A stretch of DNA of 63,970 nt, counting the filler, from Licmophora abbreviata (lineage: Eukaryota), in the NCBI GenBank assembly GCA_900291995.1. It is 18 parts of 18 records of this genome, joined end to end, with 100 filler letters (N's around TTAATTAATTAA, not from the genome) between each part and the next. Parts side by side here need not be neighbours in the genome. Positions count along the whole stretch, not along the records: positions 8,149 to 17,968 come from OLMU01006142.1; 17 more parts are not named here. One strand, written 5' to 3'. Positions 9,512-42,339 of the stretch are shown here, piece after piece. Made by a program: the position numbers and the translations under genes. The notes beneath the pieces are model-generated. The model was not told the DNA's origin, did no database searches, and saw only the letters and a program-made list of their open reading frames with translations. Position 1 is the first letter of the stretch, and every line of letters starts with the position of its first letter.

Positions 9512-10072
9512 TCATGCTCTCAGCAATCGATTCATACTTCGCTGCGTGGCAATCATTCTGGGATGCGACGAGTTCATTTGCGTCTGTCTCAGCAAATTCA
9601 GAGCCCGCTCATAGTACTTCATGGCTGTATCTCGTTCCAGTAACATTTCATGGCAGTACCCCAAGTCATGACAGGTAATGGCAGACTCAATGGGCCGCTG
9701 CAGTTGTGTGTAGATCGAGAGTGCGTGTTCGTGGCAGACGCGGGCTTGGACGCAGTCTTGTTGCATGTGGAGTCGAATGAGGCCGAGGGAATTCCAAGCC
9801 TCTGCGACAGACTCGTGTACTTCGCCGTGTCGCTGTGTTGCGAGAGATAGATTCTGAAGGGCACTGGAAAGTAAGATGACACCGTTGCCGTCTTCTGTTG
9901 TTTCGTCCTGTGAGGACGTTGAAGTTCTCGTAGTGGTCGTTGTGGCGGTACTGGCACTGGTTTTGGAATGCTCGCTGCTGCCGCAAGACGAGTCTGACGA
10001 CGAGTCCTCCATCATGACCAGATCAGAATGCAAGATCATTGTAGAAGACGAGGAACTGCGACTCTCACACAT
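9512..10072 (-). CDS. TPR-repeat protein (kinesin-light-chain-like TPRs)
   Basis: HESVAEAWNSLGLI...A..CHEHAL and SAITCHDLGYC...AMKYYERAL. Ser/Thr-rich N-terminus. Confidence 0.75.
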   Translation of the reverse strand: MCESRSSSSSTMILHSDLVMMEDSSSDSSCGSSEHSKTSASTATTTTTRTSTSSQDETTEDGNGVILLSSALQNLSLATQRHGEVHESVAEAWNSLGLIRLHMQQDCVQARVCHEHALSIYTQLQRPIESAITCHDLGYCHEMLLERDTAMKYYERALNLLRQTQMNSSHPRMIATQRSMNRLLRA

Positions 10073-10448
10073 GCTACTATAGTAGAGTCTCCTGTTCGCT
10101 TTTCGTGGGGCAGCGTGACTTGATTTGTGAAATCATACAAAAGGGGAATGAGTGGCTTTTGGCACCAGCGTTCAATGTTCAATGTCGTGGCAGATTGAAG
10201 TTGTGTCCGTGTTGAAGTTGGTTTTACTTATGGCGAGTGTGACGAGATTCGAGATTTGAGATTTGATTCTTCACCTGGAACGTGGAACGATGACGCCTAC
10301 CACGACTGAATGAATTACCCGTGACTGACTGAACTCGAGATACCGTTGGAAAACAGAACAACCGAAACGAACGAAAACAAAAAATCAGACAGCTTTGTTG
10401 TGCTTGATTACAAGTTCTCCCCCTTTCTAGCAAGCATTCATCTTCCTA

Positions 10449-13400
10449 ATGATGATTCGCAACAACAACAACAACAACAACAAGAACAAAACAACGAAGA
10501 AACGACGACCCTGGCTGCGCTTGCCGCGGCTTGCCAGGCGCCCTGCATCATCCACAACAGACAAGAAGCGTGCTGTTGCGTCTCCCGTGAGTGTCGTGGA
10601 CGACGACGATTCCTCCTCCTTCTTTGGACAAACGTACTATTATACTGAGAATCACGCAGCAACAGACAACACTCCTCAGTATAGTGTTGGAACTACAAGT
10701 CCGGTGGCCGCATCACCGACCGATTCCTTCCATGACATACTGCCGCTGGAGAATGAGTATTTTTATGACGACCTTTCCTTGGAGAACCATCTCTCGCAGG
10801 AAGACCTTGTCCAGCCACTTTGTCCAGTTTTGGAGGCGAACATGGAAGATAGTGGAACGAAAGAGGTGGCGAGATCATCGCCGTCCCCAAAAGTTTCTGT
10901 TCTCACCAGCGACATGGAGAGCAAAGAGAATGCCATTCCATCCAATACCATACAGACGACAAAGACGCCTTCGAACGGATCCACCATCAAATATTCCGTT
11001 CCTGCACCTGTTGCAGCTACACTGACAGAGGCTGACTTTACGACTGGGCAGGCTGTTGTTGTGGTCTCCAAACAAGCAGGCTCTGCCAAGATGGGAAGAA
11101 TTTCGAAACGCGTGCGGAAAGGAACCTTTCGGATTCGTCTAGATACGGGCGGGACAGTCAACAAGCGGTGGACGAGTCTGCGTCCGATGAGCGAGGCATC
11201 GCTGTACGACAAGAATAATCATGACGCTAGCGATGTTCCAATGATTGCGACAACAAGCCCTTCGTCGCCACAGGTGCAGCTGGAATTGAAGAACAAGAGC
11301 CCCTCGGGGGCTCGTCAAGATGATTTTTGCGACGGCCAAGAGGTCATCATTACCACCAAGGACTATTCTGGACAGGTGGGAATCATTGTTGGGCGCATCA
11401 AGAAAGGTACCTACAAGGTTGAGGTTGAGGGCGGTGGTGGGACGACAAACAAGAGATGGACAAGCCTACAGCATCACGTGAGCAACATGTCGAGGATGAC
11501 GAGTGACAACAATAAGGTTATGTCCACCGCCAGCAAATCACCTACGGATGGTATTGTGGAGGAATCTCGGTTGAAGAATAGCGACAACGCGTCGACGCAC
11601 GAGACCCGAGACAGTCTGTTGGTGCCCAGTCCGGTCAATATTCGGGAATCGTCAATCAGAGGCCATGCACAAATGTCAACTAGCGACACTGCATCTGAGA
11701 CGACCGTTTCTGTTGGTGCAACGGTGAGAATCGTCGGGGGTTCATGCAAGAATGAGATTGGTCGTGTTGTTGGCCTCAAGGGAAAAAAGACGTTCGTCGT
11801 GGAGCTCTCTGGGGGGGATACAGTAAACAAGCGGGCCAACAGTATCCAACCGATCGGCGGTGACACTTTATCTTCCTCGAGTGCTTCCACTGCGGGAGAA
11901 GCATGGCGAGTCGAAGATGCAGATCGAGGTGGTACTAGATTTGGATCTCGCGTGATTGAGAAGATTCGTTTCCGCAACGACAAGAAAGCTCCAAAGGACC
12001 GATGCTTCCTGAACCACATCCTTGGTGAGCGTTTTCTTCTGATCGAAGAGCCTCTGGATGGCAGAGGAGACAATGAGCCATTCGCCACACAGGTCGAAGA
12101 GTGTGGATGTACCTATGAGCTCGTCTCTGCGAAGGTTCAAAGTGACACGGATGCTCAAGCCGGAGCTTACCACGCATCGAAATGTGTTCATCTTACCTAT
12201 GCGAAGGCGAGAGGGCCCCGTCTGGAGACGCTTGACATGAAAAGTATGCTCTTGAAGATTGCTGATTTCGGAAGCCTCAACCCACGCAAAGTCATGGCGC
12301 GTTTGGAACTACTACAGAGTCCGGCGTTCTCGTTTCCGGGGACGAAAGAGACTGGTATGTTCTTTCAAAAGCCGTCCGACTTTAATTACATTCCAGACAA
12401 AGGATACGTAGGTTGCGGCTTTGTTGAAGAGGGCTTCCTGATGAACCTCGCCAAGAGTCGCGGTATGGGGCAAACAGCTGCGAGTCGGTTGCTGGGAATC
12501 CAAGTGCGCTTGTTTCTCCCTTCGATGGGCATTTTCAAAGGGATGCTCTGTCGCAAGCGCATCGCGTCAGGACCACCCGTTCAACTGTGCGATTCCATGC
12601 TTAAAGTTGGCCCTTCTAAGTACCCAGACCTTGCAGAGCAAGCATGTCTACTGGTGACTAAGAATGGTTTCCATTCCAACAGCAAGATAAATGGATACAT
12701 TAGTCAGATGCTCGATCCAGAAGCCAAGGATCCTCCCAAGAAGTCGTTTACTCATGCAATCAAGCCTCTAAGCGACATGATTCTCCGTTTGTGGCGGGGC
12801 TCAGGCGTTCCGAAGGAGGTGTGCGACCTTTACGCAAAGAAAAGTGTCAAACCACTGCACTTGAGTCACGCGTGGATTGTTGGACTTGCGGATCCTACAG
12901 GATTGTTGCCCGACGGACACGTCTTCGTCACAGGCTTGAAAGGATTGCGTGCTACCCAGGAAGACATTTTTGTGACGCGCTCCCCATGTGTGAAGCCTAG
13001 CGACGGAAAAGTTCTCCCGTGTGTCACCAGCAAGCCCATAGACATGTCAGACGACGAATGGGAATGGCTCAATGGTCTTCCCTTCGGGGGTATCATCTTT
13101 GCCAACCCCAAGGAAGCAATGGCGTCAATGCCGGAACGTATCGCTGACGGCGACCTCGACGGAGATCTCTACTTTGTCTGCTGGAACGATCAGATTCTCC
13201 AGCACATTCAAAAAGTGCCGATGGAAGACATTCCTGCAGAGAACGACCCCAGTTCCATGGACGAGAATCTGGGTTGGTTCGAAGACGCCCAGAAACTCAT
13301 GACCAATTCGTCGGCTGTGCAAGAGATGAGCACCCTGACAGGAAAGCTGTACACTGCATCGAACAAAGTTGCCGACGAATCAGCTCTCTTCAACAACGAC

Positions 13401-13547
13401 CCTGACGCGATAGCCTTCGGCAACGCCTACAAACAGGCACTCGAGTTTGGAAAGCATGGCGGAACCATCACTCTCCCGGCGCATTTGCACAAGAAGCTCC
13501 CTCCACGTCTTCGAAAGCTTGTTGCGGCACCACAGAGTGAGGGCTAA
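10449..13547 (+). CDS. RDR: Cellular (RNAi-type) RNA-dependent RNA polymerase with three N-terminal KOW/SH3-like repeats
   Basis: Ordered RdRP motifs K..ARL, GCGF, QVR..G.FKGML, SMLK, GLADPTG.L..G.VFV, VTRSPC..P.D and catalytic GDLDGDLYFVCWN (DLDGD at 13152-13166). Confidence 0.88.
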   Translation: MMIRNNNNNNNKNKTTKKRRPWLRLPRLARRPASSTTDKKRAVASPVSVVDDDDSSSFFGQTYYYTENHAATDNTPQYSVGTTSPVAASPTDSFHDILPLENEYFYDDLSLENHLSQEDLVQPLCPVLEANMEDSGTKEVARSSPSPKVSVLTSDMESKENAIPSNTIQTTKTPSNGSTIKYSVPAPVAATLTEADFTTGQAVVVVSKQAGSAKMGRISKRVRKGTFRIRLDTGGTVNKRWTSLRPMSEASLYDKNNHDASDVPMIATTSPSSPQVQLELKNKSPSGARQDDFCDGQEVIITTKDYSGQVGIIVGRIKKGTYKVEVEGGGGTTNKRWTSLQHHVSNMSRMTSDNNKVMSTASKSPTDGIVEESRLKNSDNASTHETRDSLLVPSPVNIRESSIRGHAQMSTSDTASETTVSVGATVRIVGGSCKNEIGRVVGLKGKKTFVVELSGGDTVNKRANSIQPIGGDTLSSSSASTAGEAWRVEDADRGGTRFGSRVIEKIRFRNDKKAPKDRCFLNHILGERFLLIEEPLDGRGDNEPFATQVEECGCTYELVSAKVQSDTDAQAGAYHASKCVHLTYAKARGPRLETLDMKSMLLKIADFGSLNPRKVMARLELLQSPAFSFPGTKETGMFFQKPSDFNYIPDKGYVGCGFVEEGFLMNLAKSRGMGQTAASRLLGIQVRLFLPSMGIFKGMLCRKRIASGPPVQLCDSMLKVGPSKYPDLAEQACLLVTKNGFHSNSKINGYISQMLDPEAKDPPKKSFTHAIKPLSDMILRLWRGSGVPKEVCDLYAKKSVKPLHLSHAWIVGLADPTGLLPDGHVFVTGLKGLRATQEDIFVTRSPCVKPSDGKVLPCVTSKPIDMSDDEWEWLNGLPFGGIIFANPKEAMASMPERIADGDLDGDLYFVCWNDQILQHIQKVPMEDIPAENDPSSMDENLGWFEDAQKLMTNSSAVQEMSTLTGKLYTASNKVADESALFNNDPDAIAFGNAYKQALEFGKHGGTITLPAHLHKKLPPRLRKLVAAPQSEG

Positions 13548-13867
13548 CATGTAGTGCTAGAGTGAGACGAAGCACCAGCAGATTGGATCTGCTGGTTCAA
13601 AGACCTGCGGAAGGGGTACGCGTAAACTAAGATGTATGTTTGTTTTTTACGTGTATTCACGACTCCTTCCTTGCTCTCTAGTAATGAGAATACGCCACAA
13701 TCGTCCCTCCGGCGATAGACATGTTACATTGAGTGCCTCTACGTTCACTGGCAATCCACATTCGAAATCATGTATGACGAGCGCGCTTAAGTGCCTGCTC
13801 CGTCGCATGATTGTATTCCTCCTCTAATCGTGAAATTGACTCACCCATGGTTTGTTGTTCCCATTTT

Positions 13868-23488: not shown

Positions 23489-25770
23489 ATGAGCATGACG
23501 AGAAGCTCACGAAAACGCAAGATCATCCTGACTTGCTATTGCACCTTCCTCGGGGTTTCGTCTTGTTGCGGTCGACTGGGGGAGTTCGCTGCTGACGATA
23601 CGAATACCGGTTCGATCGCTTTGAACCAGACAACAGCCTCTCTGCTTCAAAAGAGCGAAATGAAAAAAGGAGAACCCCTCAACGACAAATCTTTTGCTCC
23701 GAATTTATCACTACTGAATGGCACTTCTTCGGGGCCACTTCGTCCAAGTGAGACGAGCATAAAACTTCTAGATGCACCGTTATCGCTAAACTCTACAAAG
23801 TCAACACTTCTCGGCTTGCCGCCGCTCTCTGAAGTCAATCATCCTTACGGTGAGGCATCACCACCCATGCCTACTACTACTGATACACAACACATTGTCG
23901 GTGGCGACATTGTGGCTCCCGGTACCTTTCCGTTCTTCACAGACTTTGGACCATGCGGAGCAGCTCTGATTCATTCAGATATCCTCATCACTGCAGCGCA
24001 CTGCAACGTTGTCACCAGTCGCAAGGTCTATGTCAATTCCCACTACTCTCCGCACAGTGGTGGTGAGGGCTTGGGTCCATCCATCGACAGCAGCAAGGGT
24101 GACATGGAAGAGCGGCACATTCTTGCCAGACGAATACACCCCGATTACAATAATCGAGCCACCAAGGGCCATGATATCATGCTGCTTAAATTGGATTCAC
24201 CGAGTAACCATACTCCCGTCGCCATCAATTCGGACCCCGACCGCCCCATTGTTGATAGGAACGTGATTGCCATAGGCCACGGCGTGGTTGATACTGCGAC
24301 ACGTGAGTCGTCGTCCCTTCTTCGCCGAGTTTCACTGAGCACATACTCCAACGAAGAGTGTCATGATATCTATAGTAGTATGGGGCACTTTGATGTCATT
24401 CGGGACAGCATGTTGTGTACCGGAACCCTGAGCGGGGGGCGTGACGTNNNNNNNNNNNNNNNNNNNNNNNNNNNNNNNNNNNNNNNNNNNNTTAATTAAT
24501 TAANNNNNNNNNNNNNNNNNNNNNNNNNNNNNNNNNNNNNNNNNNNNGCTTGTTGCTTCTGTTTGAGATACAACTCGTCCATTCATTCGTTCACTCTTTC
24601 GTGACTTCCACAGTCTTGCCAGGGTGATTCAGGTACGTCCATCGCAAAGATCGCTTGTCATCGCCTTTGCCTACCCTCCGCTACGTATGTATGGAGCAAG
24701 CACCGATTCACGAATTTGCCTCTCGTTCTCTCCTCTTTTCAGGCGGCTGCGTCTTGGAACGGCAAACATCAGCCTCACCGTCGCAAAAAGTTGAGTTTGC
24801 GCTAGTAGGCATAGTATCGTTTGGAATAAGCTGTGCCTTGCCCAACGTACCGGCTGTCAATACAAGAGTCAGCTCGTACTCGCAATGGATCCAAGAGCAG
24901 ATTTGTGATTTGTCCGAGAATCGACCCAGCGATTGCCCACCGATCCCAGAAAATGCAGTGGCAGTACGAGTCAATGTCGTGTTGGGTCGTGAGTTTCAAC
25001 AGACATCGTGGTCTATACGGCGCAACGAGGACGGTCTCGTGGTCTTTTCGTCACGGGGATACTCGCCGGGACTCACGTCCGAACGAGTTTATCTCACGCC
25101 AGACACATACGTGTTTGCTCTGGTGGATACGACTGGTGGAGCTTCTGCCACGTACGAGCTTACGGCCGACAAGGGAGAGAAAGGTGAAGTGCTGATCAAG
25201 AGTGGCGGAGGTTACTACTCTGACATAGGACCTCATACATTCATCCTGACACCACCTGAGATCGACGTCGAAGAGGATGAAGGAGAAAGAGGAGGCACGG
25301 ATGGCGCTAGTACAGCTTCTTGCCACGATATTTCCGGTGACGGCTTCTATGTCAACAAAATGTTCGGTACCCAGAGCTGCACATGGCTGAAACAGAATCG
25401 AGGCTGGAGTCGAGTGTTGTGTCGACCGGGCAGTCGAGTCTACGAGACGTGTGCAGAGACTTGCGGAACGTGTTCGACCAACGGCGAAAAGGAAACTTCA
25501 GCGGAGACGACCGTGGAATGTGAGGACTCGAGAACAGGTCTATTTACGCTAGACGGAAGAGGGGGCTACACATGTCGATGGCTATCATCATTGCGACGAG
25601 ATGCTGGAACGATGAAACGTATCTGTGATATATCCAGCGGAAACGCAAGAGAGGTGTGCCGAAAGTCGTGCCAGACATGCGGGGCGGACGAAGTGGAACG
25701 GAAATACGCCCCACGTGCCTATGATCGACATATATTCCCCACCAGGAACCAGTCGATGCAGCGATCTTGA
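23489..25770 (+). CDS. Trypsin-like (S1) serine protease with C-terminal ShK-like Cys-rich domains; microexon 24614-24632, intron 24633-24742
   Basis: IVGG, ITAAHC, HDIMLLKL, spliced D-SCQGDSGG and VGIVSFG..C. Two C.WL...C...C..[ST]C..C modules follow. Confidence 0.88.
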
Positions 25771-29093: not shown

Positions 29094-31624
29094 CTACGAC
29101 TGAAAGTTCCGTGCCTTTTCAAGAATACCTTCCATATGATTCATGCCCGGCACGGTGAACTGCGCACTGTCCTTCTTACCACCGCCCTTACCGCCAGTAC
29201 CCTCTGTGACGGCAGCGACCCAGGCCTTGCAGTTGACGTCTCCCATACCCTTGGGAGNNNNNNNNNNNNNNNNNNNNNNNNNNNNNNNNNNNNNNNNNNN
29301 NTTAATTAATTAANNNNNNNNNNNNNNNNNNNNNNNNNNNNNNNNNNNNNNNNNNNNCACCAGCATGAGCGCCTTGTCCTTTATCTTTTTGCCATACGCG
29401 GCCGTGACTGCCTTGGCAACCTTGCCTTCGACGCCAAAGTCGGACCGACAGACAACCTTGTTGCCTTCCGTGTCGGCGGCAGCGGCGAGCACCGTTTCGA
29501 CAACTTGACCGGTTTGCGCAGCAGCCTTTTCCTTCTTGTACGCAACGACCTTTCTGGACAGCGAGCCGAGCGTTTCGCGAAAGTCCACCTTTTTGGAGGC
29601 CGAAATGGACAGACTGTTCAGCTCGGTAGTGAGCTCCTTGACCAGTCCTTCCAGCTGGTCGCCGCCGACGTTGGCGGCGGCCTTGAGCTTGGCGTCGAAT
29701 GTCATGGCTTTTTCAATCGCAATCTTGGCGTCGCCCATCGTCACTGCTGTGATACGACGAATGCCCTTTGCGATACCTTCCTCGCTGAGTAGTACAAAGG
29801 CTTCAGCGTCCTTGGTATTGGTCAAGTGCGTGCCTCCGCAGAACTCAATGCTATACTCGTTCCACGAGTCGTCCTGTGGGTTTCGAAGAATGTCCACAAC
29901 GGGAGTAGGGGCGACTGACACTACGCGGACTGGGTCCGGATAGGTTTCTCCAAAGACGGCACGTAGCGATGAAATTTGCTGGGCATCGGCTAGGGGAGCC
30001 ACGTAGGCATCCACAGGGACCTCCCTTTCGATACGGTCCGAGCACAGCTCTTCAATTTTTGCAAGCTGTTTGGGCGACACGGGTCCGTTCCACGAAAAGT
30101 CAAAGCGAAGCTTGGATTCGTCCACGAGCGATCCCTTTTGGTCAACGGTCATGTTGGGAGCCTTCTCGGCCTGGTTCACAAGCACTTCTCGAAGGGCATG
30201 GTTGAGCACGTGAGTCATGGTGTGGTTGGCAGCAATGGGCAGGCGTCGCGTGAAGTCGACCTTGCACGTGACCGAGTCCTCTGCAGTAACTGTACCGTCG
30301 ATCACTTCACCAACATGCAAGACAAACTGCCCATACATTTGAACGTTGTCGACCCGCACGGTCGCGCCACTCGTAGTTTCCAACACACCCGTGTCAAAGA
30401 CTTGCCCTCCCGCCTCAGCGTAAAAGCTCGTCTTGTCCAAGACGACGCCCACAGAACCGTTCGCCACCGAAATGGAAGACACAAATCCGATCTTGTCTTC
30501 GGTCTCTCCTCGTCCCACAAATAGCGCCTTGGCCGTACATCCGGTCAGATCCTCATTCCATACGTACTTGAGAGAATCGTCCGTCGCCTTCACTCCCTGC
30601 CCAACAAGATGAGCCGTCTGCTCGGCAACGAGTCGCATGTCCTTGCCGCTGCCGCCGCTCATCTTTGCCTGATGGGCCGCAGCGCTCAATTCTTGCTCCT
30701 CTCTCATTTTATTTTCAAAACCATCCTTGTCAAGCGTCAGTCCCTTCTCTTCCGCCATGAGTTCCGTCAGGTCGACTGGAAATCCCATGCTCGTGTACAG
30801 AAAGTGAGCATCTTCACCCGAGAAGACCTTGTCTTCTCCCACCTTTTCGGCAAGCTCATTGAACTTCAAGAGACCCTTATCGAGAGTTCGCGAAAAGGAT
30901 TCTTCTTCTTCCTGGATGATGGCCGTCACGTATTCTTGCTTTTCCACCAATTCGGGATAGGTCTTGCCCATGAGCTCGACAAGCGCTGGAACGAGCTTGC
31001 TAAAGAATCCCAATTCAGCGCCAAGGTTTTGTCGTCCATACCGCACCGCGCGCCGCAGTACACGTCGCAGCACATATCCCCGGCCATCGTTACTGGGCGT
31101 TGCTCCATCGGCAATGGCAAACGAGAGGGTCCGAACGTGATCCGCCACGACTCGGTATGCCATGTCGACATATCCAATATCCTCTGCCGCACCCACTTTG
31201 CCTGCATATGGTCTAGCACCCGTCAATTCTTGGATTTTGGCAAAGAGTGGTTGGAAAATGTCAGTGTCATAGTTGCTGTCAAAGCCCTGCAGAATACTGG
31301 TGAGACGTTCAAATCCCATGCCCGTATCAATGTGCTGGGCCGGTAGCGGACGCAACGACTTGTCGGCCTCCCGATTGTACTGAATAAAGACATTATTCCA
31401 GATTTCAATGACATCGGGCAAGTCGGCATTGACCAGGGCCGCCGCATCACGGTTGCCAATACGATCGTAATGGATTTCGGTACAGGGCCCGCAGGGGCCC
31501 GTGGCGCCCATTTCCCAAAAGTTATCCTTGGCGTCAAAGGGAAGGACGCGTGAGGGTGGAAGGTATTTGAGCCAAAGATCGCGAGCTTCTGTGTCGCATG
31601 GCGTCATTTCGTCTCCTCCAAAGT
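29094..31624 (-). CDS. AARS: Alanyl-tRNA synthetase, 5' end in gap, spans gap 29258-29357
   Basis: [38 protein letters not shown] and GIRRI.A. C-terminal GGKGGG (DHHA1) lies beyond the gap, with stop at 29094. Confidence 0.97.
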
Positions 31625-33123: not shown

Positions 33124-36100
33124 TCATTCGTTCGGCGCGCCGAACGTGACCGTCTCAGCTGCATCGTTGTCGTTCTTTCCGGCCGACATTGGATCGCGGT
33201 CGACAATGGTCATCATACCATCATCGCTGCCAATAAAGAGATATTGAGGAATGGGATTCAAGAGGCTGGAAGTCATGGAGAGGCATCGGACTGGACCGTG
33301 ACGGTGCAAATCGAGTCGGGAGCAAATCTGCAAGTCGGACAAGGTACGAATCACGACCTGACCAGACTCGCCGCCAGTGACAATCATGTTTTCTCCACAG
33401 AGCTTCATGTCATGCAAGAGTTCGCCAACTTCTGTGGTGGCCAAATGGACGCCATTTATGGTGTAAGCGAAGAGACCCCCGTCCTCCGTATGGATAGCCA
33501 TGGTACCATGAGTCTCGAGAACAAGCTTTCGCACTCCGGCCGAGTCTTGCGAGGGTTCAAAGGATCGGATGAATTCACCACGACGCACAGTGTGTATGCA
33601 TAATACACCGCCCAGCGAGCCACTGATAGCGACGTCAAGATCCGAGGAGAGCGCGACGCAAGAAACGGGTGTGACGTGTCCCCAAAGGACGTGGCAGCAA
33701 CTCAGTAGCTGGTCTCGATCGTGTGAGCCACCAAGAGCTGTTTGAACATATCCGTCGGAAAGAGCAGCGGCCATGTCTGGATGATCAACTACCCACACTC
33801 GGCACGTGCAATCCTCACCCCCAGTCAACATCAAGCCACCATCGTCTCCCAGAGCTAGACATCGGATCGGGCCTCGGTGACCACCGCTTGCCGTGCCAAG
33901 CAACTTAGAACCATCCATCGAGTGGATTTTGACTGTATCGTCCCAGTATCCGCAGCTGACCATAATAGAAGACGGTTCAGCGGAGGACAGCATGTCTTTG
34001 ACTGCGGTGTTTGTGAGGCGGTTGAGGGGAGTTGCAGCTTTCCGACGAAGATTTTCGCGCACTGTACCGCCGAGAGTGAAGGCAAACGACCAGCTTCCAA
34101 CGGCCCGGCAGCTTTTGCTGTCCTTCATCGACAAGGGTAAAGCGGACCCGCGCTTCATGGCAGCACGTGAGGTACTCAGCTCTCTTCTTGCTACCTGTCG
34201 ATGCCTGTCCATCTGAATCGAGAAGGGGTGGTGTCTATTTCCAGCGCGAAGGCGATTTGGGTTCCACTTGTATGACCCGATGCTCAAATCAGCGTATACA
34301 ATCAGCACGGACTCAGTCATGATATGGATGCAGCAGACAGCGCCTCGGGCCAAGCCGCGTCCCCCAAACTGCCTTCCTGGCGTATTGCACCTCAAATGCT
34401 TCGGTACGGTGACCTGGGCGGGTGAAATACAAACCGGGTCAGTTTACTTCGGTTGCTCTACGCTACGAAACGAAAACAAAACTTACATCGTGTATGAGCG
34501 GTTTCCAGCTTTCCTCAACAGAATTTCGGTGCGGATGAGGGTCCTTCACCAGTAGCTGACTCGGTGTCTGACCAAAGTTCTGAATGTGACTCTCGGTAGC
34601 TTTCCGGTCAACCTCGTCTGTGATCTTGTCCAAATCCACAGAGCCTTCATAGGAAAGGTAATGAAAAACGTTGTACGCTTTCTCCGCTTCTGGTCCACGT
34701 TGCTTGAAACCAAAGATAAGGTCAACCCAACGGTTGAGATGACGGCTCACATGATCTGACTCGAGCGCAAGTCGGTGTATCCTCACAAATTCATGGGCTG
34801 ATCCCTTCGCCCACGGGGGCAGGGCGACGTTGTCGATCGCCTGATGGCTCTGCGTGTGACCGAGAGGGAAACGGTTGGAGTTTAGGAACATTTCAGGAAA
34901 AGTAAAGAATTCCGGAATGAGTTCTTTCACGTCTGATGTTGAAGTCAGACAACTCTTCCAGCATCCAGCCAGGTCAAAGAATAGTCGATCTGGGCAGTCG
35001 AAGCGACCGGACTGTAGTTCAACTGCCATTGAGGTGAACGGCTCCTGGCGTAACATAAAGTGNNNNNNNNNNNNNNNNNNNNNNNNNNNNNNNNNNNNNN
35101 NNNNNNTTAATTAATTAANNNNNNNNNNNNNNNNNNNNNNNNNNNNNNNNNNNNNNNNNNNNTCGAAGCGCGCAAGTACAGACTCTGTGTCCGACCAGAT
35201 GAACTTCCTTGCCCATGAGTCCTCATTCATATGAACATCCTTATCCAAAACCTCTTCTGTTTCGACAGTCTTAATCTCGTCACCGTTTTCCTCAGCCTCG
35301 TTCTCGTAGATTTTCACGGCAGGCTCTGGTGCGGTCTAGCGCTGGTTCATTGTGCCCCATGGCAGGCCCATTATCACCGTTAGTATCAGAAATATGTTCA
35401 TCGCCGCCTTCCTCGTCATCTTCCTCATCTCTTGACATAGCTCCTTGTCCTATGAATGCAGACGTATTGCGCCGCATGACATCTGACAACTCCTCCTGAA
35501 GTCTTTTTCTTGCGCGCTCTGCTCTTCCCTTTTCCGCTTTTTCGCGCTCTTGAGTGAGCATCAGCTCGTAGCTTGCATCTTCGTGGTTGTCAAAATTACT
35601 ATTGCGAACAACGAGGATCCTCCTATGCAGTCGGTCGGTGTGCTTGGCAAGTTTCCAATGCGATGAAGAGCGCCAGAGCTCACATACTCTTCGTTCGATA
35701 GCTTCCCATCGGCTCTTTGCGGACACGGCTCGCATTCCCATGAGACGAACAGACTCGTTTCTGTCATTTCGGAAACGCCCCGCAAGACGCTTCACAGTCG
35801 CATCGCCGTCGAATTCAAGATCACGGACGGCCTCCGTCTCCGCCCACTGGCGCTGATCTTCACAGTATTCTTCGAACGGTGCATTGAGCGCGCGGTGCAG
35901 CTCTGCTGTGATGGCGTTCGTCTCCGTAGCAAGAGCTTCAATCGCCAACATCCCTTCATTTGACACCATTTCTGGAATCGCGTAACCCTCCCCAAGGTCA
36001 ACGTCATGAAATTCGCGGACCCAGTTGCTTTGGAGAAAGGAGCGAACTACTACCTCTTTTGACACCGAACCATTTCCTGTTCAAGTCCCGCTTTCAGCGA

Positions 36101-39100
36101 TTCGTAAGCGTCCACAGACAGGGCAGTTCTGAGCACCACATTTCGACCACGGTAAGCAGCGAGAACTATTTCCCGAAGTTCGAATGCGACACGTAGTAGA
36201 CGCCTGAAGTTCTTCTTCTGAGCTATTTTGTCCGGAAAGTACTTGCACGCGTCTGACCCTTCAAGTTCCATTAAAACGCCAGAACAACGGCTCAAAGCGC
36301 GATGACACAGCAAGAGAATCGCAAGAATGAGGCGATCTAGAGGGGCGGATAGGTCGTCAAACGCGGCAGAGTATCCAGCAAGAGTCGCTGACTCCCGTAT
36401 CAGCTCTATGGACCAGTACAGAAAGCAACGCAGTCGGCTGCAGCACTGAAGAAACTTCAGGCTGCTTGGCTCAAGGTGAGACATCAGCACAAGCGACAAC
36501 CGGATCAAGGACGCGAGCAAGGGCCCCTGTGAATTACCAAGGCGCGGCTCGTTGCTACGGACAAGAGCCAGCCCGTGCAATTGCGAGGCTGGTTGTGATA
36601 CATCGAGAGAATCTGGAAAAATGAAGGCATCGAGAAGGGACAGCACCTGACTTGTTAATGCCACGGAGACCCGCTTCTCTAACTCTCGTTCTCGTCGAGA
36701 CCGATCACCGGGGGGTCTCTCACTGGTGATCCCGAGAATGTTGACATACTCGCAGCCGTCAATTCCCGGCACGTCTCCCTCAGGAAGTCGTATTCCGTGT
36801 AAGCCTCCAGAAATGTCATCGACGGCAGAAGCTTGTTGGTTTCTATAGTCGAGCAGTTGTACCACTCCAAATCTGAAAGAGTTCAAGGGTTCAACGCGGT
36901 CAGTTCCATCAAAGTGGTTAACCGAAGGATTCGATTGGACAAGGACAAGGACAAGGACAAGAACAATAACGGAAACGTACCCACTGTTGGTTACAACAGC
37001 TGCCGTGAGCGCTGTCAGGTGTCGTAAGCAACGCCATTGATCGACAGCGGACGCAATATCTATATCACCGCCTCCAGCAGAGACTATAGCGTTCGTAACG
37101 ACATGTGCGCTGTGTCTGAGAAGCGTTTTCCGCTCGCTACCGTCCCCAACAGGAATTGTGCCAATAGTCTTCACATCGAGAGTCCCGTAATCGATGAGAT
37201 TTTTCAAGAGATGGTTGAGAAGAAGGCTGAATACCTCGTGCCCGTTCACACAGACGCGCTGCAAGGAGGCAGCTTCTTCGATGGCATGCAGAGCCTAAGA
37301 ACAAAAAATATGCAGAATGAGATAACAGCTTCACGGCTGACACAGCAGCTCACGCCGTCGACATACCTGATCGCCACCTCGTCGAATACAGTCGCCGAGA
37401 AGACTTGAATACAGTTTCACTGAAAGGTCAAACAACATGTGTTTTTGCGGTAAAGAGCCGGTCCCAACCGCTGGATCAGACTTGAAGTTCGAGTTTCGTT
37501 GCGAGCCTGCATCACGCGCACGCGACTCTACAGTTTCCTCCATGCTGGTTCTGTGTAGGTAAGGCGCTGCACCCGCCTCTTGTTGCGTGTTGTTCAGCGA
37601 GCTGTCGTCAGTGGGGATATATTTAACTTTGAGTTCCTCCACAACATCTGACTCAAGGTGAAATAGCGACGGCTGCCACTGTGGGCACTTGAGTAGCAAA
37701 TTCAGATTCGAATGGCTTGTCAAAACCATTCCAACTAGTTCAAGCAACCATCGTTCTTTCGTGCTGTCATCAAGGAATCGAAGAAGTCGCAGGATGCTGT
37801 TGATGGCACCATTGTCTTGAAACTTCTTTCCTTTGATAGAGCTGAGCTGCAATAAGAGCATGTTGGATTGGTCCACACTGAATCGATATCCAGTCCGCAT
37901 TACCTCGTCTTTGACAACCACTGTTTCTACCACAGTTTCTGCCGAATACTGCAGTCCGCGGTTGTCAAGCATCAACTGAACAAGCGCGTCGTGACTCCCT
38001 GAACCTAGGCGAGAGCGATGGGCCTTTAACAGATGCCAAAGAAGTTTGTAGACTACCTTGACACTACTCCCCGACGAGTGAATCATGCTCGACAGGACGT
38101 TGCTGCTCCCTATATCTGCTAACCCCTTTCCAATGTTCGATATTCTTGCAGTAAAACGCCTGGCAGGCGTCGCTCGAGCCTGCGACAAAAAGCTGATGGG
38201 GGCCTTGGTATCCAGGCCGGTCGCACCTTCGGATTGGGACGAAATCGAGTTAGTACCGCATTGGAGCTGGGGCCGATCACGTCCAAGTAAACCGAAAGAC
38301 AGCGGATTCCGATCGATCTAACCTCGTCGTCAAATGAGTTTCCTAGGCCACAAAGAATCCAGGCAGCAACTCCATGAGCGCCTCCGCAACACGCGGCGAA
38401 GCCTTCGTAAAGACCTACAATAGCAGGTCGCGTCTGTAGCAAAAAGTAAGTAATAGTCGCAGCTTTCAGAGAACAATCGTGCATTTCGAGTCTGGTGCCC
38501 GTCCGAAGTGACGCGTCTCTTCCACAGCTGACGTCCACTGAAGCCCTCCCAAACTCGTATTCTAAAGTGTAGGAGATGTAATTCAAAAGAGGCGATAGAG
38601 ACCGCGAAGACGTTCCGGCCAGCAACATCTCGACAATCATACCGAAGATCACATCAATAACGTGTCGTCGCTCGTTGAGCGTAAGAACCGCGTCGGTCTC
38701 CAGGCCGGAAAAGCGGCTCCTGTCGAACAACTCAGTTCCCGGTTCTCGCGAAAGCTGTTTTTAAAGGTTCAACAGAGAAGAAAGACAAGGAATGAGAACG
38801 CAGCTTTAACATTTCTGCCGGAGTTGTCGCAACGAAGATCAACCTACATCCATGCCGTCTACATTCGTGTATTCCTTCAGTGAGTCGACCAACTGCCTGA
38901 CACCGACGCAGTCCCTAGCTTTCCCTGGATTCGTCTTAACTATTGATGAAAGTACTGGGAGCAGAATCGAGTAGAGCGAAGTTCCCGGCACCTGGTTACA
39001 GTTATGGAACCAAAGCGGAAAATTGAAAAGTAGACGGGAGTATACAGTCGTCTCAAGGCCTGTGTAATGCGAGCAAGCCGTTCGGAGTTCGAGCAACGAT

Positions 39101-42100
39101 TCTGCTACCATACTTGAAAGCCCAGGATACATCGCAAGAATGTCAATTAATGATCCGGTCTCTACCGATCCTGTCTCTGTGACTGCACTGACGTTTCGGT
39201 TCGATAGCAGAAGCTGCTCAATTATATCGATACCTCCGCATCTCAGCATTTCTCGAGCGTTATTGTCGTGCCCCCGTAGAAAGGCGGTGAGAATCGATAT
39301 CAGTGCGGGTATCAGTGAGAACGATATAGCCTTCCCAGGTAAGTATGAAACCCCGGAACCTCTTTTTGCGTCAACGCCATCTTCGACAAGCCATAGCTTT
39401 TCAATGTCTCCAGAGAGAAGGGTATCGAAGATCGGAAGTAAGGCTTGAATTCCACCGATATTCGCTATCGTATCTCGAGCCCCATCGATCTTCCATGCGA
39501 CAACACTATCTTCGTCGATTCGAACATGAGCACCTGCATGAACGTCAACTAACACAGGCGCTTCAATCCGAGACGGATGCCAGACCAGAAACAGTTTTGA
39601 GCCAAAGGCAGGCCCGGAAAGCTCGGCCGGTAGTTCAAAAAGCTCGGAATGCTCATCTTCGCCGAGGTCCACCACGTCGATTCCAGACAGATGCGTATGG
39701 CCAGAAACAGCCGCCGAGTGACATTCCTGGCTTGATAAAACAATGTCGTCAGCATCGGCACGAGCCATTTCGACCCCCAACGCATTGGACTTCTGTGCCT
39801 TTTCTGCTCGACTAGAATCCCATTGCTGGTCGTCCTGACCGTCCTTCCGAACCATTCTGTCGACTGACCCTGTAGCATCGTACAGAGTCTTCAACGAACC
39901 ATCGGAAACATTACCATTAAACAGGAAAAGTCGACCTGCTTGTCCTTCAAAGTTCGATCCGAATTCAATCCTCATGGCAAATGTTCCATTGGGTTTTGTC
40001 TCAGAAGCTTTCACAGGATGGCGCATCAACCCATCCAATAGAGACGGGACGCTTTCGCCAGAGTTTCCTGGAAGTTCGGTCTTTGGGAAAGGCAGCGACT
40101 CTGAGAGCATTACCTTGCCGTCTAGTAGAATAGATATTTGTTGACGAGATGACAACGAAAAGACACCCTGCAGCCTGGATCGAGTGTGTCGAATTGCGAG
40201 GTGATACCAAACTCGAGGCAACAGGACACATCGTGTCATTTGAATTTGATGCGACAGGTGACCGGACGAGCGACCGTTTGAGTCACGGTTTGAGTCATAG
40301 ACGGATACAACAATCACCATAGCCGCCTCTCCTTTCGGCACGTTTCCTTCCAGCGGCTTCAGCGAGACCTCCATGCCCCCTCCATTGTCAGTACGAATGG
40401 CAAGTAATTTTGGATGGTGCTGTGGGTCCGAATAATCGAAGGTTTCGGCACGAAACCAAAGTGCCATCCCGAAATCGTTCTTGAATGGCCACGATGAGAG
40501 AGGCGTGATCTTTCGGTGAAGTCCCTTCCCATACCCAAAGGAGAAAAAATGACGAGGAATAAATCTTCCAAGGAGCCGGGATGAGCTGGGCGAAACGTCT
40601 GCAGCAGATCGGAGAGCCCGCAAAAGCAGCACTCGGTCCATTCCTGGAAAGTGGCAGTCTCTGTGTGACAATGAACCCGAAGAAGGAGACGGAATAGGTC
40701 GCGACAACAGCTCCAGCATAAAGCGAAGCTCTTTCGTTGATATCGTGGCCGAGCTGAGTATCCCAATGAGTCGAGCTATTGGTGCAATGAGATAGTCTGC
40801 CGTGCATTCTTGTACAATTGTCCCCCAAAAGGTCAGTAGATGGTTGATGGTTTGACTTCCGATTGACTTCCACGCAGTGCCACTGAGAAATCGTACGACC
40901 CCATATACTTGATCCGGACGGTGCGTCGTTCGCGTGTAACTTCCGTTCGCTGACTTCTCGAAAAGCTCTCGTCGCTCCCTCCGTACTTTGTCAATCATTT
41001 CACGCTGTTGACGCACCCGTCGAACTCGTTCGTGCGTACGGGTCTGAAAATCACGGCTGTCTGCACCTCCACTATCTTCCGCACTAGGCGTCATTTCGTC
41101 AGGGCTGTCGTTGTCGTCCCACCATTCGCAAGTTCTTAAGCACGCATTATTGTATTCGTCGTCCGTCTCGTTGGTAAGCAGCCGGATCAATATGCGTAAA
41201 AGAGCGAGAGAAAAGGCAGGCGGAAGACGAATCAATATATGGTGATTGCAAAGCACCGAAATAAGCGACATCTTATCAGCCCCAGCAACCGATATTAGAA
41301 CATCGGTCGGCAATGTAGCATCCAGATCTCCATGTCGCCTCATAGCAGGACCCATCCAGTGTCGAACTTTCAGCATTTCTGTTTCGAGCGCAAGAATTCG
41401 TTGAACACATTCCAACGGCGGTGGCGGTGTACAGAGGGTAGCAAACAATGAGTAGAGCAGAAGAACTTCATCTGTGGTGTCTACCAACAACAACGGCTTT
41501 GCATCACTCTTGTTGTGTCGCAGAAAAGGCAGAAAGATGCGTCGTGTCTTTGGTGACGCTGATGGTGACGCTTCGGACGGAAAACGAGAAGTGCGCAGTC
41601 GAGCTGGGATCTCTTCCTCGGTAGTAGCGGAGCGGAGCTCTGATACCGGCAACGGAAGTGCACCGCATGCATCCAGCAACTCGGCAACAGTCTGATTTGG
41701 TTGCGGTAGTGGTTGCTGCTCGTCCTCGTCGATAGGTATAGTTCGTTCACTCTCGTGTGGATCGTTTTGGGCAGCCGTGTCTGTTGAATCTACGGCTGCA
41801 CTCTCAGGCTCCGACAATTCTTCCTTGGAAGCACTCTTCTCCACAACGTCACTCAAGGCCTCGTCTCTCGGATCCTCCTCCACCTCTTGGAATCGATCCT
41901 CTTCAAACTCGGAAGCTGAGGTCCTAATGGAGGACCTCGACACAGTCGACTGTCTCGAAACATGACGTGCCATTGCGGATGGCAAGGGAAACTCGATGGA
42001 CGCCTCCTGCATATATCGCTCTGTCGTGTGTATCTGTCGAAAGTCCGAGCTACCAACCGAGTCATCATCCTCATCATTGTCCGATGCCAAGACACTATCC

Positions 42101-42339
42101 GATCGTTCCATGCGCGTCGCTGCTTCCACAACTGCAGCTGTCGCCTGTTCGAGTTCGTGTGGGTCCATGCGAGTCTCTTCTAAATCGACGTTTTCGGAAT
42201 CAGAGTCGGATGCCACAGAGTCTTCTTGCATAGTTTCGTCTCGTCGTTGTTGTTGTTGTTGTTGTTCAATTGAATTCATCGTGTCAATTACTAGAACAGA
42301 GGAAGAATCCACGACATGGTTCTCATCATTCTGACTCAT
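33124..42339 (-). CDS. BEACH domain protein (neurobeachin/LvsC-like): ConA-like, ARM, PH, BEACH, WD40; multi-exon, spans gap 35063-35162
   Basis: LQSGRFDCPDRLF, DVKELIPEFF, LPPWA, WVDLIFGFKQRG and NFGQTPSQL, plus C-terminal WD40s and an N-terminal WYHLAI.H lectin-like domain. Several 1-nt frameshifts. Confidence 0.93.

Follow-up and report, generated by a model that had tools for sequence, protein, structure and literature searches.

A diatom RNA-dependent RNA polymerase with three KOW units ahead of a compact catalytic core

[quoted passage not shown] The region under study spans positions 10449-13547 on the plus strand. A single stop-to-stop frame (10431-13547, plus strand) runs uninterrupted through 1038 codons, and translation from its first ATG, at 10449, yields a predicted product of 1032 amino acid residues (1032 codons plus stop; P0001 in our protein set). 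On balance we lean towards reading the region before the core as a slot for targeting modules, occupied in this protein by a flexible, multivalent and basic KOW array that is a putative tether. The array would most likely make multivalent contact with RNA or with a transcription-linked partner on chromatin, and so tether the enzyme.

The catalytic core and the KOW units

The core (residues 480-1032, to the C-terminus; 11886-13544, plus strand) is that of a cell-type RdRP of the QDE-1/RDR family, the RNA-silencing type. The first-pass annotation of this DNA had proposed an RdRP domain with an intact catalytic motif, and both are present. Pfam family PF05183 matches the protein at 81 bits, above its cut-off of 23.8 (E 1.1e-22), and the DLDGD motif lies at residues 902-906 (13152-13166, plus strand; translation IADGDLDGDLYFVC), its three aspartates and the glycine (core D423, D425, G426, and D427) being invariant in 97 aligned sequences. 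Modeling of the 553-residue core using AF2 gave a pLDDT of 94.2 and a pTM of 0.92; the best folds recovered by Foldseek were QDE-1 (2.6e-19, TMq 0.56) and RDR2 (5e-17, TMq 0.53), and matches in the ESM Atlas were to generic RdRP clusters with scores of at most 0.90. A double-psi barrel is common to this core and the multisubunit RNA polymerases (RNAPs), the latter appearing as weak Foldseek rows (E 0.04-0.08).

The solved structures of RDR2 (7eu0, 7w82) and QDE-1 (2j7n) share with the window protein both catalytic fold and DxDGD motif (phmmer to RDR2 7e-8; TMq 0.50-0.58), whereas their chains comprise 930-1070 residues as against the 553 of the core, so that about a third of them is covered (TMt 0.27-0.37). 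The window protein terminates 16 residues past its alignment to RDR2 779-937 of 1133 and hence has no C-terminal head domain. The tail after the core has a median length of one residue and exceeds 50 residues in 8 of 192 homologs; the protein thus belongs to a compact, mostly diatom RdRP family without the C-terminal head. Plant RDR1, RDR2, and RDR6 possess an N-terminal RRM, a domain for which the Pfam scan of the window protein at E<=10 gave no match. Conversely, RDR2 and QDE-1 are devoid of KOW units, as had been assumed for the canonical enzymes.

The three related modules of approximately 50 residues noticed at first pass are real, and their coordinates hold to within one residue. Unit 1 occupies residues 196-245 (11034-11183, plus strand), unit 2 residues 292-342 (11322-11474, plus strand), and unit 3, adjoining the core, residues 419-467 (11703-11849, plus strand). 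Pairwise BLASTP relates unit 1 to unit 2 at E 4e-15 (43% identity), unit 1 to unit 3 at 2e-8, and unit 2 to unit 3 at 4e-6, values well past what chance would give, and the three-unit alignment contains 11 invariant columns, among them G, V, G, K, T, and N-K-R. No direct repeat at the DNA level was found within 10449-11900, which indicates that the duplication of the units is old. A family unit HMM, seeded with the three window units and iterated on 121 proteins to give 224 units, scores them at 30.1, 43.7, and 40.5 bits, respectively.

In sequence the units are KOW, and in structure they are SH3-like barrels, which agrees with the original assignment. A profile of 36 units (the three of the window and one each from 33 homologs), searched against the PDB, retrieved Spt5 (E 1.4e-14), human SPT5 706-739 (2.7e-12), and uL24 (approximately 5e-6), and the best 60 rows were all Spt5, uL24/L26, or KOW-domain proteins, with no Tudor among them. 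The human SPT5 segment falls inside the fifth KOW motif of that protein (2e70 spans 703-757). Four homologs exceed the cut-off of the Pfam family KOW5_SPT5 (PF23290), namely P0008 (29.7 bits), P0012 (40.2), P0062 (59.4), and P0208 (44.2), and 19 of the 24 homologs scanned, which were picked partly for a pre-annotated KOW, exceed that of Pfam KOW. The AF2 model of unit 2, based upon the 36-unit alignment, is a five-stranded SH3-like barrel with a pLDDT of 87.1. VIA-align likens it to DSIF KOW6-7 (Z 8.8), MjSpt5 (8.6), and NusG (8.6); the Foldseek and VIA-align matches comprise the KOWs of DSIF, Spt5, and NusG and also GPKOW and KIN17. PWWP and Tudor barrels tie with KOW in this structure search (Z 8.8 to 8.0). 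The aromatic residues, with a median of three per unit, stand at positions common to the family consensus and the KOW motif.

The units are basic across the family (n=224), with a median pI of 9.9, 89% above pI 9, and a median net charge of +5. In the window protein unit 1 is very basic (pI 12.0, net +10) and unit 3 carries a net +5. The intervening linkers are acidic (pI 4.4-5.8) and, as first described, rich in Ser and Thr (22-32%). Linker 1 (residues 246-291; 11184-11321, plus strand), which is Pro-rich as well, has a pI of 5.0, 22% Ser+Thr, and 11% Pro, and linker 2 (residues 343-418; 11475-11702, plus strand) is by composition 32% Ser+Thr. Within the family the linkers between KOW units have a median length of 54.5 residues, and the last KOW is separated from the core by a median of 43 residues (10th-90th percentile 10-110, range 6-383, n=81); the spacing of the units relative to the core is free. 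A complex prediction of the core with unit 3, in a run in which alignments were unused, returned a score of 0.00, which speaks neither for nor against their association.

The same KOW subtype also occurs outside the polymerases. Two such proteins are P0207 (808 residues) and P0209 (441 residues); one contains four near-identical units together with Pro/Ser-rich repeats, and no RdRP, and another combines one unit with a C-terminal RING finger.

Family-wide architecture and the N-terminal slot

Searching with the RdRP part gave 163 proteins. Among the best 120 of these, identity reaches 51% at most, and the named relatives are the diatoms Attheya, Cylindrotheca, Seminavis, Amphora, Cyclotella, and Chaetoceros; among the matches listed, the identity of the core to its best homolog is 51-53%. 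A pre-computed KOW-type Pfam family is assigned to 28 of the same 120, and some homologs have automatically been named "ribosomal protein L24" or "NusG," names that the KOW units explain. A phmmer search across the protein library with the core counted 850 representatives at or below 1e-3, of which 299 reached E<=1e-30; among the best 150 of the 850, no canonical RDR of the alpha, beta, or gamma clade and no phage YonO-like enzyme appears. A word-index search with residues 180-480 gave no match, a result that reflects the sensitivity limit of that method, as the later core-based searches revealed.

The architecture, for which a search of other diatoms had been suggested at first pass, is present in 122 of 205 homologs, 30 of which have one unit, 54 two, 36 three, and one each four and five; for 146 of the 205, KOW status was assigned by the family HMM alone. 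Where at least 150 residues precede the core, units are found in 109 of 143 homologs. The KOW-RdRP arrangement is the rule within the diatom-type family and is not a feature of the plant, fungal, or animal enzymes. In four homologs (P0071, P0108, P0143, and P0183) KOW units follow the RdRP core, instead of or besides those before it.

In a FastTree phylogeny of 171 near-complete cores, the midpoint root separates 72 rows, of which 31 bear KOW, from 99 rows, of which 82 do. The window protein stands beside P0002 within a well-supported set of 68 rows, 52 of which have KOW. As regards the individual units, the core-proximal one finds its best match in the third unit of another protein in 21 of 33 three-unit proteins, whereas units 1 and 2 intermix across the family and, in the window protein, are each other's best match. 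Unit 3 of the window protein is closest to units of P0002, not to its own sister units.

The RdRP of Thalassiosira pseudonana, XP_002290515.1 (UniRef100_B8C1R8), belongs to the same compact family (core match E 8.7e-93). The family HMM detects two units before its core (21.7 and 36.3 bits), as compared with three in the window protein, and Pfam KOW gives no match to it at E<=0.01. Since Pfam misses the units, the KOW array of this enzyme has probably gone unremarked. Its 90%-identity cluster also contains P0288, an entry with the EukProt label Alexandrium tamarense, a dinoflagellate; this looks like diatom contamination of the dinoflagellate data set.

Passages of three papers on diatom RNA interference (De Riso 2009, PMC2724275; Rogato 2014, PMC4247016; Maumus 2011, PMC3145265) call the genes putative RdRPs, nothing more, and make no reference to an N-terminal domain. 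The first of these passages gives gene models Pt2_45417 and Tp3_8685 and the partner Tp3_5028. The legend to Figure 6 of Bollmann 2016 (PMC4791657) has DEAD-box, helicase-C, and RdRP domains only. Full-text literature searches, and the passages of these four papers on RNA interference in stramenopiles, produced no description of a KOW-RdRP fusion. The combination is visible in automatic annotation, and hence not hidden; it appears to be undiscussed. The proviso raised at first pass, that such an architecture might already be common in annotated RDRs, turns out to be half right: it is the rule in the diatom-type family, and automatic annotation already gives such proteins the names cited above.

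Besides the KOW-bearing members, 34 homologs have a long N-terminus without KOW, and 33 of these were scanned with Pfam. Above the cut-offs are two Chromo, five PTM/DIR17 Tudor, one PHD, and two HA matches; one more Chromo match in the same 33 is weak and below its cut-off. A sixth Tudor match, likewise below cut-off, lies on P0117, a fragment with a short N-terminus outside the 34, and a match to Agenet in the slot of sister RdRPs is weak. The Tudor bearers and the HA bearers correspond to subclades of the RdRP tree, and the HA form falls in a cluster with entries from Proboscia alata, a diatom, in MMETSP and EukProt. Alignment with hhalign of the 224 KOW units to the five Tudor modules gave a probability of 0.6%, which argues that these modules are replacements and not detectably divergent KOWs. 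The PHD-bearing form, P0202, comes from a green alga by its record (Cymbomonas tetramitiformis); either the family reaches beyond the diatoms or this record is a contaminant.

Possible roles of the KOW array

The tethering role that we favor can be pictured as follows. The KOW array would bind single-stranded nucleic acid (the template or the nascent RNA), a component of the machinery for transcription or RNA processing, or both. In this manner the polymerase would be brought to its template and kept there, and the second strand that it makes would feed Dicer and Argonaute. Because sister enzymes have chromo, Tudor, PHD, or HA modules in the same slot, the likely site of action is at chromatin-associated nascent transcripts. 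Small RNAs serve diatoms in the silencing of genes and transposons, and the array offers a handle on how their RdRPs find templates, the value of which is increased by its exchange in relatives for chromo, Tudor, and PHD readers.

Such an enzyme would do in a single polypeptide what other systems divide between an RdRP and the separate reader proteins that recruit it. In Schizosaccharomyces pombe this involves RITS/RDRC, with the Chp1 chromodomain, and in Caenorhabditis elegans the Tudor protein EKL-1 together with RRF-1. Both likewise pair a targeting barrel domain with RdRP activity. In these systems, however, reader and polymerase are separate chains, whereas here they form one chain and the commonest module is KOW, which is not known to read histones.

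Several observations weigh against the picture of a slot holding a basic KOW array. The Pfam KOW model (PF00467), a check named at first pass, fails on the window's own units: it matches unit 3 only (residues 422-451), at E 1.7 and 9 bits against a cut-off of 22.3, so that their assignment as KOW rests on homology to the family profile. The family unit HMM was itself iterated on the same protein set that it scores, and structure comparison does not separate KOW from Tudor, PWWP, and SH3. Unit 2 of the window protein is nearly neutral (pI 8.1, net +1). No recognizable domain was detected in 22 of the 33 KOW-less long N-termini that were scanned, and the slot is therefore drawn from 11 proteins. 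Lastly, the tree was midpoint rooted and built without an outgroup, and for this reason we only infer that KOW is ancestral.

A more far-reaching proposal, which as a whole we regard as tentative and on the doubtful side, joins four parts. Diatom-type RdRPs would be a separate compact branch whose N-terminal targeting slot is exchangeable; KOW arrays would be widespread in it, and perhaps ancestral, having been replaced in subclades by chromo, Tudor, PHD, and HA; the array would engage either the elongation complex of Pol II or its nascent RNA, as Spt5 KOWs do; and a single polypeptide would couple second-strand synthesis directly to transcription on chromatin. If true, this would constitute a route to heterochromatic or transposon siRNA that requires neither a Pol IV-type partner nor an adaptor complex of the RDRC/RITS type. 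The undescribed small-RNA or transcription pathway suggested at first pass is speculation.

An alternative is that the units act in cis as an Spt5-like processivity clamp, docking on the two-barrel core near the RNA/template exit and raising processivity, much as the Spt5 KOW domains dock on Pol II. Spt5/NusG, uL24, and plant SPT5L/KTF1, the last of which functions in RNA-directed DNA methylation, all have the KOW signature and five-stranded barrel of the window units, and in Spt5-type proteins, as here, KOWs are strung in tandem along flexible linkers and have a connection to RNA polymerases. The profile match within the fifth KOW motif of human SPT5, the four KOW5_SPT5 homologs, the barrel in common with multisubunit RNAPs (albeit through weak Foldseek rows), and the frequent kinship of the core-proximal unit with third units elsewhere (21 of 33 three-unit proteins) would all suit a clamp. 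Spt5 and SPT5L differ in possessing the NGN domain, CTR, and WG/GW repeats that the window protein lacks, and their KOWs reside on an elongation factor whereas those of the window protein are covalently part of an RNA-templated polymerase. It is through the NGN that Spt5/NusG binds the polymerase clamp; the Pfam scan of the window protein gave no Spt5-NGN match at E<=10, whereas the fungal Spt5 proteins retrieved with the unit profile do have it (PF03439). An Spt5 paralog was rejected on the same ground. Furthermore, a unit number of 0-5 and a distance to the core of 6-383 residues are ill-suited to a fixed docking geometry, the slot may hold chromo, Tudor, PHD, or HA instead, and in four homologs units follow the core. 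The lack of NGN, the free geometry, and the exchangeable slot weaken the Spt5-style idea, and the processivity analogy of the first-pass annotation, in view of the missing NGN, the one to five units, and the widely variable linkers, does not hold up; we consider a clamp unlikely.

We regard it as improbable, too, that the barrels are chromatin readers of the royal family, which would read methylated histone tails and so place the RdRP on marked chromatin. The fold matches of unit 2 include the Tudor domains of PHF19, PHF1, and TDRD3 and one PWWP domain, and the slot of sister RdRPs may contain Chromo, Tudor, PHD, or (weakly) Agenet. The top PWWP match, however, is a structure bound to single-stranded DNA, the units are strongly basic as nucleic-acid binders would be, and neither the PDB profile search, with its 60 best rows confined to KOW proteins, nor the hhalign comparison to the family's Tudor modules relates them to a reader. 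The KOW-only sequence matches and the positive charge weaken this idea, and of the Tudor-like chromatin reading envisaged at first pass, what survives is the occurrence of chromo, Tudor, and PHD in the slot of sister proteins.

It is very improbable that the fusion is a gene-model artefact, with the KOW region and the RdRP separate in vivo by way of an internal start, splicing, or read-through from an upstream gene, since the frame is single and uninterrupted over its 1038 codons, the units are conserved in frame (30-44 bits), and the KOW-then-RdRP order is repeated by 109 of the 143 long homologs, which stem from independent assemblies and predictors and include the EukProt entries of Attheya, Cylindrotheca, Amphora, and Chaetoceros and the RefSeq model of T. 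pseudonana.

Remaining features of the gene and the window

The N-terminal region ahead of unit 1 (residues 1-195; 10449-11033, plus strand) is of low complexity, containing a poly-Asn stretch together with a basic KKRR patch, and is acidic overall (pI 5.4; Ser+Thr 23%). It is unconserved in the family consensus, and the Pfam scan recognized no domain in it (no family with E <0.8). The poly-Asn stretch is encoded by an AAC/CAA triplet run at 10461-10490 (plus strand), and 10449-10501 was treated as a repeat in read mapping. From one sequencing run, of uncertain type, two short contigs with a depth of about 3 were obtained at 12163-12446 and 13396-13610.

The neighboring open reading frames (ORFs) in the window are ordinary nuclear genes, specifying LRR, FBPase, TPR, ubiquitin-conjugating enzyme, trypsin-like, PFK, alanyl-tRNA synthetase, and BEACH/WD40 proteins; the ORF scan disclosed no RNAi genes among them. 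A TPR_12 ORF (43.8 bits) at 9512-10132 on the minus strand is divergent from the RdRP gene, and the gap of approximately 317 bp between them (10133-10448) may be a shared upstream region. Two plus-strand ORFs, 23489-24499 and 24691-25770, match parts of the trypsin domain (profile positions 1-174 and 180-220) and probably belong to a single serine-protease gene that an intron or a frameshift interrupts. A WD40 propeller of the neurobeachin type and a DUF4704 solenoid, at 33124-34320 and 38839-42339, both on the minus strand, probably represent exons of a single large BEACH-domain gene of about 9 kb. The Pfam model match of the alanyl-tRNA synthetase ORF (29310-31607, minus strand) commences at model position 129, and the N-terminal part of this enzyme is probably located in an upstream exon.

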